Of a stretch of DNA of 64,000 nt, positions 37,657 through 41,146 are shown piece by piece. Position 1 is the first letter of the stretch; each line of letters opens with the position of its first letter. The notes below the pieces were generated by a model, which worked only from the letters and a program-made list of their open reading frames with translations, made no database searches and was not told where the DNA came from. Origin of the DNA: Escherichia coli (lineage in GTDB: Bacteria > Pseudomonadota > Gammaproteobacteria > Enterobacterales > Enterobacteriaceae); the NCBI RefSeq assembly GCF_041248615.1, contig NZ_CP158426.1, one strand, 5' to 3'. A program made the position numbers and the translations under genes.

Positions 37657-38700
37657 TTATCCACGTAGTGTAGCCGCAAAATCCAGCATACGATTGAGCG
37701 GCACCAGCGCCCTCTCTCGCAGCCTTTCCTCAACATGAACCTCATGATTGCTTCCTTCCTGTTCTAATGCCTCTGCGATGGCCTGAAGGCCATTCATGGC
37801 CATCCACGGACAATGCGCGCAGCTGCGGCAGGTTGCACCCTCACCTGCGGTTGGTGCTTCCAGTAACTCTTTATCTGGCACCGCCTGCTGCATTTTGTAG
37901 AAAATACCCCGATCGGTTGCCACAATAAGCCTCTGATGTGGCAATGTTTTCGCAGCAGCGATCAGTTGACTGGTGGAACCGACCGCATCCGCCATATCGA
38001 CAATAGCTTGTGGTGATTCTGGATGCACCAGTATGGCAGCATCCGGGTATTCTTCTTGCAAGCGGGTTAACGCCTGAGTCTTAAATTCATCATGCACAAT
38101 GCAGGCACCCTGCCAGCATAAAATGTCTGCGCCCGTCTGTTTTTGCACGTAACGCCCCAGATGTTTGTCGGGTGCCCAGATGATTTTTTCACCCAAACTA
38201 TCCAGATGATCAATAAGTTCGACGGCAATGCTTGAAGTTACCACCCAATCTGCCCGCGCTTTTACCGCAGCAGAAGTGTTGGCGTAGACGACGACAGTAC
38301 GATCGGGATGGGCATCGCAAAATGCGTTAAATTCCTCAACAGGGCAGCCGAGATCCAGTGAACATTCAGCCTGAAGTGTCGGCATCAGAATTGTTTTTTC
38401 CGGACTGAGAATTTTGGCGGTTTCTCCCATAAATCTCACCCCAGCGACTAACAACGTAGAAGCGGGATGCTTTGCACCGAAGCGCGCCATTTCCAGAGAA
38501 TCAGAAATACAGCCACCGGTTTCTTCTGCCAGTTGTTGAATTTCGGGATCGGTATAGTAATGGGCAACCATCACCGCATTACGTTCTTTTAGCAGACATT
38601 TTATCTTCTCGCGGTAATACGCTTTTTCATCAATGCTTAACGGTGTCGGCTTCGGGGGGAAAGGATAAATCGCCGTGTCTGGATCAAACATCACGCTCAT
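37657..38700 (-). CDS. nadA: Quinolinate synthase A
   Basis: 347 aa; K-12 order. Confidence 0.9.
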
Positions 38701-38939
38701 CTTACCATCTCGTTTTACAGGCTTAACGTTAAAACCGACATGAGCGTAATATTCGCTGTTATCGGTGAAATTTGTTTTATATGCTAAACAAGATAGTCGA
38801 ATGGTGGGGAAAAGTCACTCGAATTACGTATGAGATGACGAATGCCACACTTTGCGTCTTATTCCTCCGACGTAGAGTTGTTTACGCAGCAAGCGCGGAG
38901 TATGTCATCAGGGTTAAGAATTGAAATTGAGAGATGCCT

Positions 38940-39308
38940 GATAGCAAAAAAGCGCCTTTAGGGCGCTTTTTTACATTGGTGGGTCGTGCAGGATGACTCG
39001 CTTCGCTCGCCCTTCGGGCCGTCGCCGCGAGCGGCTCCGTTGTTTCGCTGCGCTCAACTCAAACCTGCTGCAGGTTCGAATCTTTGAGTATCGCAGATAG
39101 CAAAAAAGCGCCTTTAGGGCGCTTTTTTACATTGGTGGGTCGTGCAGGATGACTCGCTTCGCTCGCCCTTCGGGCCGTCGCCGCGAGCGGCTCCGTTGTT
39201 TCGCTGCGCTCAACTCGAACCTGCTGCAGGTTCGAATCTTTGAGTATCGCAGATAGCAAAAAAGCGCCTTTAGGGCGCTTTTTTACATTGGTGGGTCGTG
39301 CAGGATTC
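38940..39308. repeat. Tandem repeat, 156 bp unit x ~2.4, downstream of the tRNA operon; each unit has a terminator hairpin and a 17 nt tRNA-Lys 3' fragment
   Basis: Units at 38940-39095 and 39096-39251, with a partial third copy merging into the 3' end of the last tRNA-Lys. Each unit holds aaaaaagcgcctttagggcgctttttt plus tggtgggtcgtgcagga plus tgactcgcttcgctcgcccttcgggccg... Confidence 0.8.
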
Positions 39309-39364
39309 GAACCTGCGACCAATTGATTAAAAGTCAACTGCTCTACCAACTGAGCTAACGACCC
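39289..39364 (-). tRNA. lysQ: tRNA-Lys (anticodon UUU)
   Basis: 76 nt; reverse complement matches E. coli tRNA-Lys (GGGTCGTTAGCTCAGTTGGTAGAGCAGTTGACTTTTAATCAATTGGTCGCAGGTTCGAATCCTGCACGACCCACCA). Name assigned by K-12 operon order. Confidence 0.9.
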
Positions 39365-39397
39365 CTTGCGGGATTATGCTGCTTTAATCATTCAGGA

Positions 39398-39473
39398 TGG
39401 TGGGTCGTGCAGGATTCGAACCTGCGACCAATTGATTAAAAGTCAACTGCTCTACCAACTGAGCTAACGACCC
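39398..39473 (-). tRNA. lysZ: tRNA-Lys (UUU)
   Basis: Same 76 nt tRNA-Lys sequence; name by K-12 operon order. Confidence 0.9.
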
Positions 39474-39619
39474 ATACGGGTGTTACCTGAAAGATTTCTA
39501 CTCGGAACCAATCTTTAAAATTGGTGGGTCGTGCAGGATGACTCGCTTCGCTCGCCCTTCGGGCCGTTGCTGGCGCAACGTTATCCTTCACGCTTAACAT
39601 CTGAGTTTGATGTTAAAAT

Positions 39620-39695
39620 TGGTGGGTCGTGCAGGATTCGAACCTGCGACCAATTGATTAAAAGTCAACTGCTCTACCAACTGAGCTAACGACCC
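39620..39695 (-). tRNA. lysY: tRNA-Lys (UUU)
   Basis: Same 76 nt tRNA-Lys sequence; name by K-12 operon order. Confidence 0.9.
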
Positions 39696-39698
39696 GAG

Positions 39699-39774
39699 TG
39701 GTGGGTGATGACGGGATCGAACCGCCGACCCCCTCCTTGTAAGGGAGGTGCTCTCCCAGCTGAGCTAATCACCC
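39699..39774 (-). tRNA. valZ: tRNA-Val (anticodon UAC)
   Basis: 76 nt; reverse complement matches E. coli tRNA-Val(UAC) (GGGTGATTAGCTCAGCTGGGAGAGCACCTCCCTTACAAGGAGGGGGTCGGCGGTTCGATCCCGTCATCACCCACCA). Confidence 0.9.
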
Positions 39775-39825
39775 GATACTGCGCTGGATACTACAAACTA
39801 CTTCCACCGAACCCACCGTAATTAG

Positions 39826-39901
39826 TGGTGGGTCGTGCAGGATTCGAACCTGCGACCAATTGATTAAAAGTCAACTGCTCTACCAACTGAGCTAACGACC
39901 C
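39826..39901 (-). tRNA. lysW: tRNA-Lys (UUU)
   Basis: Same 76 nt tRNA-Lys sequence. Confidence 0.9.
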
Positions 39902-39903
39902 GG

Positions 39904-39979
39904 TGGTGGGTGATGACGGGATCGAACCGCCGACCCCCTCCTTGTAAGGGAGGTGCTCTCCCAGCTGAGCTAATCACCC
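39904..39979 (-). tRNA. valT: tRNA-Val (UAC)
   Basis: Same 76 nt tRNA-Val sequence. Confidence 0.9.
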
Positions 39980-40114
39980 GATACTACGCTGGATACTACA
40001 ACTAACTATGTTAGTGGTGGGTCGTGCAGGATGACTCGACTTCGTCTCGCCCTTCGGGCCGTTGCTGACGCAACGTTATCCTTCACGTTTTACTACCGCT
40101 TCCACCTTAGCGAT

Positions 40115-40190
40115 TGGTGGGTCGTGCAGGATTCGAACCTGCGACCAATTGATTAAAAGTCAACTGCTCTACCAACTGAGCTAACGACCC
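40115..40190 (-). tRNA. lysT: tRNA-Lys (UUU), first gene of the operon
   Basis: Same 76 nt tRNA-Lys sequence; the promoter is expected upstream at higher coordinates. Confidence 0.9.
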
Positions 40191-40354
40191 ACTTTTTCGT
40201 TGCTTTCGGTTTGTTTGATATCCCGTGGCAACGGCGGCATATATTACTGATTTCAGACTTGAGCGCAACAAAAATTTCGATGTAGATCACTCAACTGCTT
40301 ATGATTCGCACGACACGACCAGAAATAATGCGACTTCTGGTCGTGTGTTATGCA

Positions 40355-41146
40355 TTACATCGCGTTCAGACGTTTTTGCGCCTGTTTAGCGCCATCAGTA
40401 CCAGGGTATTTACTGATAACCTGCTGGTATACGGCTTTCGCTTTTGCGGTATCACCTTTGTCCTGCATGATGACGCCGACTTTAAACATCGCATCTGCAG
40501 CCTTTGGTGACTTCGGATAGTTTTTCACTACCGAAGCAAAATAATACGCCGCATCATCTTTTTTACCCTTGTTGTAGTTTAACTGACCCAGCCAATAATT
40601 GGCGTTTGGCAGGTAAGTTGAATCAGGGTAATTTTTGATGAAATTCTGAAATGCCACCATTGCGTCATCCTGGCGGGATTTATCCTGCACCAGCGCAATA
40701 GCTGCATTGTAATCCGTGTTTGCATCACCGCTTTTCACCGGCGCGCCAGCATTCGCAGTACCAGCATCAGCTGTCGGCGTCGTTGATGCCGCCGCACCGC
40801 TTTGATCGCCGCTGGTTGATTGCGCCGCTGCACCACCGCTGCTGAGGCTATCGATCTGCAACAGGATCTGCTTTTGCCGCTCCACGACCTGATTCAGTTG
40901 ATACTGATTTTCCTGAATCTGACCACGCAGGGAATCAATATCGGATTGATTATCAGAGAGTTGTTGCTGGAGTTGGGTTAAAAGCTGGCTGTGAGCATTT
41001 GAAATACGCTCAAGTTGAGTGACGCGGTCTTCGACCGAGCCTGAGCCGACACTACTGATTGGTGCCTGAGCAAAAGCGGCCCAGGGGGCCGCTATACCAA
41101 CCAGTAACGACAGACTCAATAGTTGATGTCTGAAGTTACTGCTCAT
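40355..41146 (-). CDS. cpoB: Cell division coordinator CpoB (YbgF), TPR protein
   Basis: 263 aa with signal peptide, coiled coil and C-terminal TPR repeats; downstream of pal. Confidence 0.9.
   Translation of the reverse strand: MSSNFRHQLLSLSLLVGIAAPWAAFAQAPISSVGSGSVEDRVTQLERISNAHSQLLTQLQQQLSDNQSDIDSLRGQIQENQYQLNQVVERQKQILLQIDSLSSGGAAAQSTSGDQSGAAASTTPTADAGTANAGAPVKSGDANTDYNAAIALVQDKSRQDDAMVAFQNFIKNYPDSTYLPNANYWLGQLNYNKGKKDDAAYYFASVVKNYPKSPKAADAMFKVGVIMQDKGDTAKAKAVYQQVISKYPGTDGAKQAQKRLNAM

Follow-up and report, generated by a model that had tools for sequence, protein, structure and literature searches.

The closest described relatives of the repeats reported here are the RtT/rttR elements of the tyrT-tyrV operon. 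The tyrT repeat is a 178-bp unit which reportedly is present in 3.14 copies and contains tpr, an open reading frame for a 'protamine-like' protein; the original accounts are said to be those of Egan and Landy from 1978 and of Altman et al. from 1981. A discrete stable RNA, rttR, is annotated for tyrT. The 3'ETS of leuZ is a tRNA-spacer-derived sponge for RyhB and RybB.

The window, i.e. the whole stretch of 64,000 nucleotides that was analysed, includes the region from cpoB through the lysT operon to nadA of E. coli, whose tRNA genes lie on the minus strand. The features in the direction of transcription are:

40115-40190, minus strand: lysT, tRNA-Lys(UUU), first gene of the operon (ARAGORN; Rfam tRNA model, 79.2 bits)
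40015-40114, minus strand: probable RtT module of the spacer type between lysT and valT (RF00391, 60.6 bits; fold; presence/absence allele)
39904-39979, minus strand: valT, tRNA-Val(UAC) (ARAGORN)
39826-39901, minus strand: lysW, tRNA-Lys(UUU) (ARAGORN)
39699-39774, minus strand: valZ, tRNA-Val(UAC) (ARAGORN)
39620-39695, minus strand: lysY, tRNA-Lys(UUU) (ARAGORN)
39522-39619, minus strand: probable RtT module of the spacer type between lysY and lysZ (RF00391, 57.8 bits; fold; alleles)
39398-39473, minus strand: lysZ, tRNA-Lys(UUU) (ARAGORN)
39289-39364, minus strand: lysQ, tRNA-Lys(UUU), last gene of the operon (ARAGORN)
39059-39349, minus strand: spurious 96-aa open reading frame made by the repeat, TTG start inside lysQ
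39258-39284, minus strand: intrinsic terminator copy 1, the terminator of the operon (sequence; fold)
39133-39257, minus strand: probable RtT unit 1 of the trailer type, with an orphan tRNA-Lys 3' end at 39133-39150 (RF00391, 51.6 bits; RefSeq 'RtT sRNA')
39102-39128, minus strand: putative intrinsic terminator copy 2 (sequence)
38977-39101, minus strand: probable RtT unit 2 of the trailer type, with an orphan tRNA-Lys 3' end at 38977-38994 (RF00391, 46.7 bits; RefSeq 'RtT sRNA')
38946-38972, minus strand: putative intrinsic terminator copy 3 (sequence); unique sequence and nadA (start 38700) come next

In the lysT-valT module 83 nt precede an orphan tRNA-Lys 3' end (40015-40032), and the other 35 nt of this spacer (39980-40014) match the short allele of other strains. 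The lysY-lysZ module consists of 81 nt plus the orphan end (39522-39539); the 48 nt after it (39474-39521) again match a short allele. In the window the lysW-valZ spacer is a short allele of 51 nt lacking a module, and the lysZ-lysQ spacer is a short allele of 33 nt.

A first-pass annotation had counted five copies of a 17-nt tRNA-Lys 3' end with a flanking motif of 28 nt, three of them in a 156-bp tandem array. The array itself was confirmed by Tandem Repeats Finder (2.4 copies with 99% identity, 38940-39306). The 17-mer TGGTGGGTCGTGCAGGA had 9 exact matches in the window against 0 expected from shuffles, and the 28-nt motif had 3 against 0 expected. Five of the nine 17-mers are the 3' ends of intact tRNA-Lys genes (starts at 39289, 39398, 39620, 39826 and 40115). 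Orphan ends accompanied by the motif are four in number, at 38977, 39133, 39522 and 40015. The repeat is real, yet its true count is four, with two in the array; what had been taken for a third '17-mer' there, the first in the direction of transcription, is the 3' end of lysQ itself and is continued by tRNA sequence rather than by the motif. Copies were found, as claimed, in the lysZ/lysY and valT/lysT spacers, but the lysT-valT motif (from 40032) has two 1-nt insertions relative to the 28-mer. Further, the A before the 17-mer agrees with the tRNA as well, so that the identity spans 18 nt. The terminator hairpin AAAAAAGCGCCCUAAAGGCGCUUUUUU indeed follows lysQ and both array orphans (39258-39284, 39102-39128 and 38946-38972).

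All four repeats were matched on the minus strand by the curated covariance model RF00391, which has a gathering threshold of 45 bits. The scores were 60.6, 57.8, 51.6 and 46.7 bits at 40015-40183, 39522-39688, 39133-39258 and 38977-39102, respectively; both trailer copies only just exceed the threshold, and both spacer matches borrow the T-arm of the real tRNA upstream as the 5' part of the model, the true extents being 40015-40114 and 39522-39619. The modules share the strand of the tRNA genes and are located in the spacers and the trailer of their operon; all four end in 18 nt identical to tRNA-Lys, CCA included. The closing helix and the internal hairpins are conserved, with a degenerate closing helix in the trailer copies. 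In the identical record NZ_OW967178.1 RefSeq labels the two array copies as ncRNA 'RtT sRNA'; the spacer copies carry no RefSeq annotation despite higher scores than the trailer copies. The four repeats are thus very probably RtT-family modules of the lysT tRNA operon. The RtT identity of the feature is already known by virtue of the curated Rfam family and the RefSeq label, and modules of this kind are ordinary in E. coli. Beyond Rfam and RefSeq we found no prior paper on the lysT repeats; the older subscription literature may hold one.

How do the lysT copies compare with those of tyrT? Like rttR of the tyrT-tyrV operon they score above the RF00391 threshold, have the same three-hairpin core, reside in a tRNA-operon spacer or trailer on the tRNA strand and finish with a copy of the host tRNA 3' end, CCA included. 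Both systems have single spacer copies as well as a tandem trailer array. There are also differences. Because tRNA-Lys is the host, the 3' fragment and the closing helix are Lys-specific. The lysT spacer copies are of a short subtype without P2, the T-arm hairpin, and without P3, the CGAGCG...CGAG hairpin. In the lysT trailer, unlike in tyrT, an intrinsic terminator intervenes between the tRNA and the units and between one unit and the next, and the closing helix is degenerate. The scores are 47-61 bits for the lysT copies versus 133-138 for those of tyrT. The lysT array shares with the tyrT 178-bp repeat the tandem arrangement after the last tRNA gene, a tRNA 3' end per unit and a small basic open reading frame; however, it is a 156-bp unit in 2.4 copies with a Rho-independent terminator per unit, and its open reading frame is in another frame and is not a credible gene. 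Whereas a discrete stable RNA is annotated for tyrT, the lysT copies are known as predicted modules.

The module core is GC-rich and comprises three short hairpins closed by a helix, P1. H1 is CGUUGC-loop-GCAACG, H2 is GCCC-GNA-GGGC and H3 is a stem whose sequence varies. The exact 18-nt copy of the tRNA-Lys 3' end runs from T-loop position 59 to CCA; its first part serves as the 3' strand of P1, and beyond P1 follows an 8-nt tail (...ACCCACCA). Minimum free energy folding of the lysT-valT copy gave P1 and the three hairpins (-35.5 kcal/mol, z = -2.5), and that of the lysY-lysZ copy recovered P1, H1 and H2 (-32.7 kcal/mol, z = -3.6). In trailer unit 1 the P2 hairpin was present and P1 degenerate; the closing helix of the trailer copies is lost, with CUCAAAGAU opposite AUCCUGCAC. 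These copies may be decaying. Across genomes the pairing is supported by covariation. For the long type (46 sequences) 89.3% of the cells were paired compared to 81.2% in shuffles, and both sides had changed in 164 cells versus 60.5 ± 6.7 in shuffles. The covariation score of 0.236 versus 0.108 was reached by 0 of 500 shuffles, and controls with slid positions scored 0.045-0.084. In the short type (34 sequences) 95.0% versus 88.8% were paired, with both-side changes in 31 cells versus 10.3 (matched by 0 of 500 shuffles). P1 follows the changes of the host tRNA, even inside tRNA-Arg; the invariance of H1 and H2 across the survey is partly built in by the search pattern. Template switching at replication is an alternative source of compensatory-looking changes in DNA hairpins and can operate without selection on RNA.

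Three other assignments were tried and rejected. A degenerate tRNA pseudogene would agree with the tRNA-like size of the short module (73 nt) and its four-way junction, but the closing helix is 8 nt off the acceptor register and the arms are tri- and tetraloop hairpins. The single-stranded tail of 8-9 nt before CCA misfits the NCCA geometry of an RNase P minihelix mimic. Weak Rfam matches to YrlA, Plastid-ycf2 and AgrB were below threshold and are side-effects of tRNA and terminator shapes.

Within E. coli the lysT locus is a hot spot of structural variation that affects the number of tRNA-Lys genes, the spacer modules and the trailer units. The modules are present or absent independently of each other, and the ten fully parsed E. 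coli loci had ten architectures. A long allele equals a short allele plus 81-83 nt and an orphan end, inserted exactly 3' of CCA; the lysT-valT spacer occurs with 135 or 35 nt and the lysY-lysZ spacer with 146 or 48 nt. When compared among strains, the copy number of the array also varied: the lysQ-nadA distance was 277, 433 or 589 nt, corresponding to 0, 1 or 2 trailer units. Zero units are common among E. coli strains, and strain MINF_1D has no lysT module at all. Of 5426 genomes, 3240 contained the trailer core, each at 1-5 places; the statements on copy number rest on this count and on the ten parsed loci. The indels are flanked by 18-nt direct repeats. Judged from sequence comparison, the short alleles are probably deletions because Citrobacter, Enterobacter cloacae and Escherichia sp. 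ESNIH1 carry modules with similar flanks. By eye, Citrobacter has a lysT-valT-type module and the latter two have a lysY-lysZ-type module, each with E. coli-like flanks. Direct repeats are offered by the identical 18-nt ends, by 54-nt blocks of end plus terminator and by the 76-nt tRNA-Lys genes; slippage or unequal recombination between them would lead to loss or duplication of modules, trailer units or whole tRNA genes, and hence to variation from strain to strain. Recombination would account for the variation, but not for the same T-loop boundary in every host.

This boundary was found well beyond E. coli. In 120 loci of other genomes the core was matched 165 times; 96 of these matches terminate in a stretch of 10 nt or more that is identical to a same-strand tRNA of the same locus, and in 92 of these 96 the identity is 18-19 nt. 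The hosts of the matched modules were tRNA-Lys (30), Tyr (26), Arg(ACG) (24), Pro(CGG) (7), Pro(UGG) (7), Gln (1) and Arg(CCG) (1). The three-hairpin core also occurs 3' of 5S rRNA, a subtype missed by Rfam, and there, too, the modules end in the terminus of their own host. A sharp boundary at a fixed position and an own-host terminus thus recur in at least seven tRNA species and in the 5S subtype; covariation of the closing helix with the host was measured in the tRNA-linked modules. Taken together, host-matched ends, a covarying closing helix and 5S-linked variants form a pattern which normally marks functional RNA. That RtT is a selected, host-matched RNA cassette on the 3' ends of stable RNAs rather than debris is possible, though we remain doubtful. 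If true, it would imply either that the cassette has an unrecognised role in starvation sensing or in the metabolism of stable-RNA 3' ends, or that a dedicated mechanism copies it onto new hosts.

Which RNA may the modules contribute to? The lysT operon yields a single transcript of ~1100 nt which ends at the terminator after lysQ and is processed by RNase P in the 3' to 5' direction (PMC4176162). This terminator, A6-GCGCC-CUAAA-GGCGC-U6, folded with -14.1 kcal/mol (z = -5.1). It has the same sequence as the valU-operon terminator, and termination in vivo is reported for the identical valU/lysT terminator (PMC4176162). Copies 2 and 3 are putative terminators by their identity with copy 1. A scan with consensus terminator and promoter models found neither the lysQ terminator nor any promoter and was not used as evidence; it misses the terminator because the A and U runs pair together. 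The spacer copies would be transcribed within the ~1100-nt lysT precursor and cut out as by-products of tRNA release by RNase P, with a minor share of RNase E, and 3' exonucleases; with its CCA end, every excised module would then have a 3' terminus like that of a tRNA. The trailer copies would be made solely by read-through because they are located past the intrinsic terminator of the operon. The idea that the repeats may be processing or terminator modules agrees with this arrangement, i.e. modules in a transcribed spacer and in a trailer, there each with a terminator copy.

Excised modules might be selected small RNAs like rtT, acting on tRNA 3'-end enzymes, in the sensing of uncharged tRNA (stringent response) or as sponges. 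P1, P3 and H3 covary across at least six host tRNAs and many genera, and the annotated 3' end of rttR is the orphan CCA. The family extends to Orbales (Gilliamella), Marinobacterium and Pasteurellaceae, and for two Pasteurellaceae members an RT-PCR signal was obtained (PMC4986893). As recounted in passages of PMC4986893 and bioRxiv 10.1101/2024.07.17.603846, which refer to Bosl & Kersten 1991, rtT, the tyrT copy, affects the response to amino-acid starvation; in these passages the stringent-response effect is claimed for the tyrT copy only. On the other hand, lysT modules are partly or wholly missing from natural E. coli strains (wholly in MINF_1D), and many long-type copies are located downstream of terminators. 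In Northern blots with lysT spacer probes no stable spacer RNA of ~100 nt was reported, and intermediates in the wild type were 'surprisingly few' (PMC4176162). On balance we consider a small-RNA role a tentative option, and the release of an RtT-like RNA from lysT is a candidate proposal only and unproven. The RtT family has been almost unstudied since 1991, and the natural strains without any lysT module are ready-made controls for tests of function. We know of no target or partner of an RtT small RNA. By analogy with the 3'ETS of leuZ, the lysT modules may be by-products of tRNA-precursor processing with a possible function of their own; to our knowledge the two share no sequence relationship, and neither an sRNA partner nor Hfq binding is known for the modules.

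The array, as distinct from the spacer copies, might instead be kept as an insulator. Each trailer copy adds a putative terminator, so that three would stand in series before nadA and could block read-through from a very strong tRNA promoter into this co-oriented gene. All three are identical, strong U-tract hairpins on the same strand directly upstream of nadA, and terminal arrays of 2-3 units, each unit with a terminator, recur 3' of Lys, Pro and Tyr genes in other genera. Such a role is unlikely, however, in view of a unit number that is only 0, 1 or 2 among E. coli strains and often 0, and termination does not require the conserved core.

Improbable, too, is that the core is a non-autonomous mobile or REP-like element which spreads to stable-RNA 3' ends and copies the end of its host. 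Its occurrence after seven tRNA species and 5S rRNA would fit, as would the tandem units of 74 nt in Pectobacterium and Alloalcanivorax, in which the core comes without a tRNA fragment. In one locus (L015) a Lys-ended module retains a Tyr-like internal arm, which suggests transfer between hosts. Yet the core has neither an associated transposase or HUH enzyme nor a fixed terminal repeat or target duplication, and the copies are orthologous across genera and not scattered. With REP/BIME sequences RtT has in common short GC-rich hairpins, multiple copies, an intergenic location and strain polymorphism; it differs in that it has no Rfam or sequence relation to them, is tied to stable-RNA 3' ends in a host-matched manner and has no implicated RAYT-type enzyme.

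The first-pass annotation had seen in the tRNA 3' ends typical footprints of integrase-mediated events, i.e. the orphan ends would be attR-like scars of a decayed phage or island once inserted in a tRNA-Lys gene. Formally the geometry fits: as at the attL/attR sites made by P4-like and other tyrosine integrases, an intact tRNA is followed by an insert bounded by directly repeated tRNA 3' ends, and the original downstream sequence comes next. The fragment begins in the T-loop, which in the classification by Williams of 2002 reportedly is one of the classic crossover sublocations for tRNA-targeting integrases. However, the insert of only 81-108 nt is a conserved, structured and covarying RNA core common to tyrT, proK, arg and 5S contexts. 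Between the repeats there was no mobile-element DNA, all of the 81-108 nt being RtT core; neither an integrase nor any other gene was present in the inserts, their open reading frames being repeat artefacts. A search of 50,697 phage records with both module types yielded no genuine phage with the core; the matches came from Salmonella WGS contigs or from small fragments (1.6-7.4 kb) that carry no annotation. Among 2.9 million viral contigs (IMG/VR) there were four true RtT matches, all at contig edges, i.e. host flank. Scanning IMG/VR for the 17-mer produced intact tRNAs or att-like halves, and with one exception, the E. coli array itself at a contig edge, the core accompanied none of them. 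Where viral contigs hold an att-like piece of tRNA-Lys, this begins at the anticodon loop (~45 nt from the end) and is not joined to the core. No phage or viral attP in these data matched the tRNA fragment plus core. Because no genuine phage in these searches carries the core and genuine phage tRNA-Lys att fragments differ, the integrase reading is unsupported; it is largely refuted and, as we see it, very unlikely.

That the repeated 96-aa open reading frame, or the arginine-rich 35-aa frames on the opposite strand, encode a tpr-like small protein can practically be dismissed: the frame exists, as the first-pass annotation had noted in calling it non-coding, and the tyrT repeat holds an annotated tpr gene of 29 aa, but the frame starts with TTG in a tRNA gene, lysQ, crosses terminator copies 1 and 2, owes its length to the number of units, differs over the shared CCCGAAGGG core from the tpr frame on reading of the sequences, and offers no conserved frame with a credible start. 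In a Pfam search of the open reading frames no match reached the cut-off, and annotation of the 96-aa frame was absent from all RefSeq records examined. For this window the significance is small, with a curated family, a RefSeq label and a repeated reading frame that can be set aside.

In practice, the variability of the locus can confuse assembly, typing and estimates of tRNA dosage. The first-pass annotation missed the RtT family, which RefSeq had already annotated here. RF00391 matches in K-12 were five in lysT, four at tyrT and one each after lysV and proK. The RefSeq remark 'processed from tyrT transcript' is incorrect where it labels copies of lysT and lysV, which are parts of other operons.

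The region at 38700-40360 is identical to isolate 362 (NZ_OW967178.1) and has the minus-strand gene order cpoB – lysT operon – nadA. The 17 nt 3' end of tRNA-Lys was present in nine exact copies in the window versus none in shuffles. Five are the 3' ends of five intact tRNA-Lys genes. The other four are orphans, i.e. tRNA-Lys 3' ends outside an intact tRNA gene; the 28 nt flanking motif is exact at three of them and carries two single-base insertions at the fourth.

Repeat features of the lysT region
38940-39306, 156 bp tandem repeat, 2.4 copies, 99% identity
38977, minus strand, orphan tRNA-Lys 3' end
39133, minus strand, orphan tRNA-Lys 3' end
39522, minus strand, orphan tRNA-Lys 3' end
40015, minus strand, orphan tRNA-Lys 3' end

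The locus was parsed as K-83-o-35-V-2-K-51-V-3-K-81-o-48-K-33-K-T-108-o-T-108-o-T (K, tRNA-Lys; V, tRNA-Val; o, orphan end; T, hairpin; numbers, nt between features). Hairpin T is AAAAAAGCGCCCUAAAGGCGCUUUUUU, always 4 nt past a CCA. The 156 bp tandem repeat of the first-pass annotation was borne out by Tandem Repeats Finder. Its count of five repeat copies, three of them in the array, was wrong: there are four, two in the array, and the supposed third is the 3' end of lysQ itself. A second tandem repeat (39620-40001, period 205 bp, 1.9 copies, 98% identity) corresponds to a block present twice, as lysY-valZ and as lysW-valT; thus the operon grew by block duplication. The 96 aa ORF across the array, already considered almost certainly not coding, is a by-product of the repeat. 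It starts with TTG within lysQ, passes through two terminators, gave no Pfam match above cut-off and is annotated in none of the RefSeq records examined; by reading, its frame is not that of tpr at tyrT.

The repeats belong to a known family and are already annotated in RefSeq. Matches to Rfam RF00391 (RtT RNA; gathering score 45 bits) terminate in all four orphans, with 60.6, 57.8, 51.6 and 46.7 bits. In the identical genome NZ_OW967178.1 two array copies are labelled 'RtT sRNA' by the RefSeq pipeline; the spacer copies are unannotated despite scoring above the trailer copies. In K-12 there are five matches within the lysT operon, four at tyrT, and single ones behind lysV and proK. Those at tyrT include rttR, the only RtT copy named in the curated K-12 record. 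The PGAP note 'rtT sRNA, processed from tyrT transcript' also stands on lysT and valU operon copies (e.g. sequence records L001:578-859 and L147:1844-1969), for which it is factually wrong. In the valU operon, lysV is also followed by a trailer-type unit having the same terminator (L142:660-785, L147, L149). It is polymorphic: K-12 and strain 158274-3 have it, APEC O18 lacks it. The remaining interest lies in the RtT family: host-matched ends, a covarying closing helix, 5S-linked relatives and extreme presence/absence polymorphism.

A common core was derived by aligning E. coli and Salmonella copies. It consists of hairpin H1, CGUUGC(C)-loop-(G)GCAACG; H2, GCCC-GNA-GGGC, followed by GAG; and H3, whose stem differs between copies with complementarity always kept, followed by GAGUMA. 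The last part of the module is the 3' end of whichever tRNA is upstream. A short subtype (about 73 nt) is found in lysT and arg spacers, a long one in tyrT, proK and the lysQ/lysV trailers. In addition, the latter contains the 5' half of the host T-arm twice, inverted and direct, along with a small CGAGCG-GNA-...CGAG hairpin. Short-type modules are present in Salmonella arg spacers (L005:1440-1570). The K-12 argV-argY and argZ-argQ spacers (serV-argVYZQ, L143) are, at 198 nt, of the same length class; they gave no Rfam match at the gathering threshold because the RF00391 model was built on the long type.

A structure was drawn up from the alignments and its pairs were counted against shuffles and, for the long type, slid registers. 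In the long type (46 sequences) 89.3% of cells were paired (shuffles 81.2%) and 164 were altered on both sides (shuffles 60.5 ± 6.7). The covariation score was 0.236 versus 0.108, reached by 0 of 500 shuffles; slid registers gave only 0.045-0.084. In the short type (34 sequences, including both window spacer copies) the values were 95.0% versus 88.8% paired and 31 versus 10.3 cells altered on both sides, and again none of 500 shuffles reached the observed score. These figures are to be read with H1 and H2 partly fixed beforehand by the search pattern, a phylogeny-blind shuffle control, and template switching as a process able to imitate compensatory change in DNA hairpins. In the closing helix, P1, a 5' strand pairs with the beginning of the tRNA fragment, and P1 tracks the host.

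Strands of P1 by host tRNA
Tyr: GGGGAAGGAU/AUCCUUCCCC
Lys: GUGCAGGAU/AUCCUGCAC
Gln: ACGGCAGGAU/AUCCUGCCGU
Arg: GGGAGGAU/AUCCUCCC

With tRNA-Arg, an altered tRNA in a species was accompanied by the matching alteration in the P1 5' strand. Independent thermodynamic folds recovered P1, H1 and H2 in both window spacer copies (z = -2.5 and -3.6); in the two trailer copies the T-arm hairpin folded and P1 was lost.

One genome per species was scanned with the pattern GCAACGRCCCGNAGGGYGA, yielding at least 120 loci. Enterobacterales account for most of the matches listed (Citrobacter, Enterobacter, Klebsiella, Kosakonia, Pluralibacter, Pantoea, Erwinia, Pectobacterium, Brenneria, Serratia, Rahnella, Hafnia, Edwardsiella and others), with some further ones in Gilliamella, Marinobacterium and Amphritea. 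Those in unrelated phyla, a minority lacking RtT context, look like chance matches. Among the matches listed, 96 of 165 had a same-strand tRNA at the locus identical to the terminal fragment, 92 of these over 18-19 nt: Lys(UUU) 30, Tyr 26, Arg(ACG) 24, Pro(CGG) 7, Pro(UGG) 7, Gln 1 and Arg(CCG) 1. In every such case the fragment began at T-loop position 58/59. Family members have also been described in Pasteurellaceae, where they precede genes for tRNA-Asn and tRNA-Lys (PMC4986893).

That the orphan ends are footprints of integrase-mediated events, as initially suggested, formally fits their geometry but is not supported: between the repeats lies a conserved structured core and no element DNA. 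When both module types were compared by BLAST with 50,697 phage records, the only hits were Salmonella contigs filed there by mistake and short unannotated fragments (1.6-7.4 kb). Of 2.9 million viral contigs, 12 contained the core pattern, and just four of these are true RtT, all at contig edges and apparently in host flank. One of the four, a tyrT-type copy (L014:4534-4649), is truncated on its 5' side, and the adjoining upstream ORF is transposase-like by eye. In viral contigs the 17-mer itself is part either of an intact tRNA gene or of an att-like half. Such halves (L152, L157, L158, L159, L162) start at the anticodon loop (CUUUUAA...) beside non-tRNA sequence and, in contrast to the window orphans, look like genuine phage att sites on tRNA-Lys genes; across the 2.9 million contigs no tRNA-Lys half of this kind carries the core.

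Copy number, which the first-pass annotation proposed to compare across E. coli, does vary. Only 258 of 5426 complete genomes matched 38700-40360 over at least 80% of its length in one place. The trailer-specific 80 nt core occurred in 3240 genomes, between one and five times per genome (median 2); this count takes in the polymorphic copy after lysV. Ten lysT loci parsed in full had ten different architectures, with four or five tRNA-Lys genes, zero, one or two trailer units and dimorphic spacers (35/135, 51/149-150, 48/146 and 33/132 nt); MINF_1D has no RtT module at lysT. The long allele equals the short one plus 81-83 nt and an orphan end, inserted right after CCA; thus each indel is bounded by 18 nt direct repeats (54 nt for trailer units). 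A lysT-valT-type module is present in Citrobacter and a lysY-lysZ-type module in Enterobacter cloacae and Escherichia sp. ESNIH1, with 5' flanks that by eye resemble those of E. coli. The long state is thus probably ancestral, the short alleles having arisen by deletion between repeats. At the DNA level the repeats would account for how modules, trailer units and tRNA genes are gained and lost. Sixteen lysT-region matches were on plasmids, e.g. the 50 kb NZ_CP098226.1 (20407-20599), which has tRNA-Val and tRNA-Lys genes.

The lysT operon is transcribed as one RNA of about 1100 nt ending at the terminator behind lysQ; RNase P first cuts off the terminator and goes on to free the tRNAs from the 3' end, with a minor part for RNase E (PMC4176162). 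Both spacer modules would lie within this precursor and be excised as by-products, with the copied CCA end as a tRNA-like terminus. Similarly, the 3' end of annotated rttR coincides with its orphan CCA. The trailer modules behind the terminator would be made by read-through only, each placing an extra terminator ahead of co-oriented nadA. Because no stable lysT spacer RNA was reported in wild type (PMC4176162), a regulatory role of the lysT copies is unproven; the starvation phenotype claimed for rtT (summarised in PMC4986893 and bioRxiv 10.1101/2024.07.17.603846) is that of tyrT alone.

RtT-like modules also lie downstream of 5S rRNA genes in other genera (L033:80-230, L074:60-215, L077:205-360, L098:300-450, L093, L103, L107, L108). 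Here the 3' region of 5S is represented by an antisense and a sense arm, with the same three-hairpin core between them, and the terminus is the last 13 nt of 5S (AACUGCCAGGCAU) with the same trailer. Annotation is lacking because their Rfam score, 34.1 bits, falls below the threshold of 45. The H1-H2-H3 core further occurs as tandem 74 nt units in Pectobacterium (L088:3285-3451, period 74; L087, L095, L096) and in Alloalcanivorax (L078-L080). Each unit continues into UCAUAAAAAAACG and a hairpin resembling a terminator, and a tRNA fragment is absent. The core may be a repeat more widespread among gammaproteobacteria. In another genus a three-unit Lys trailer array (L015:12216-12712) combines a Lys 3' fragment with a Tyr-like internal arm (CCAAGGUUCGA). 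This apparent chimera is a hint that modules pass between host tRNAs.
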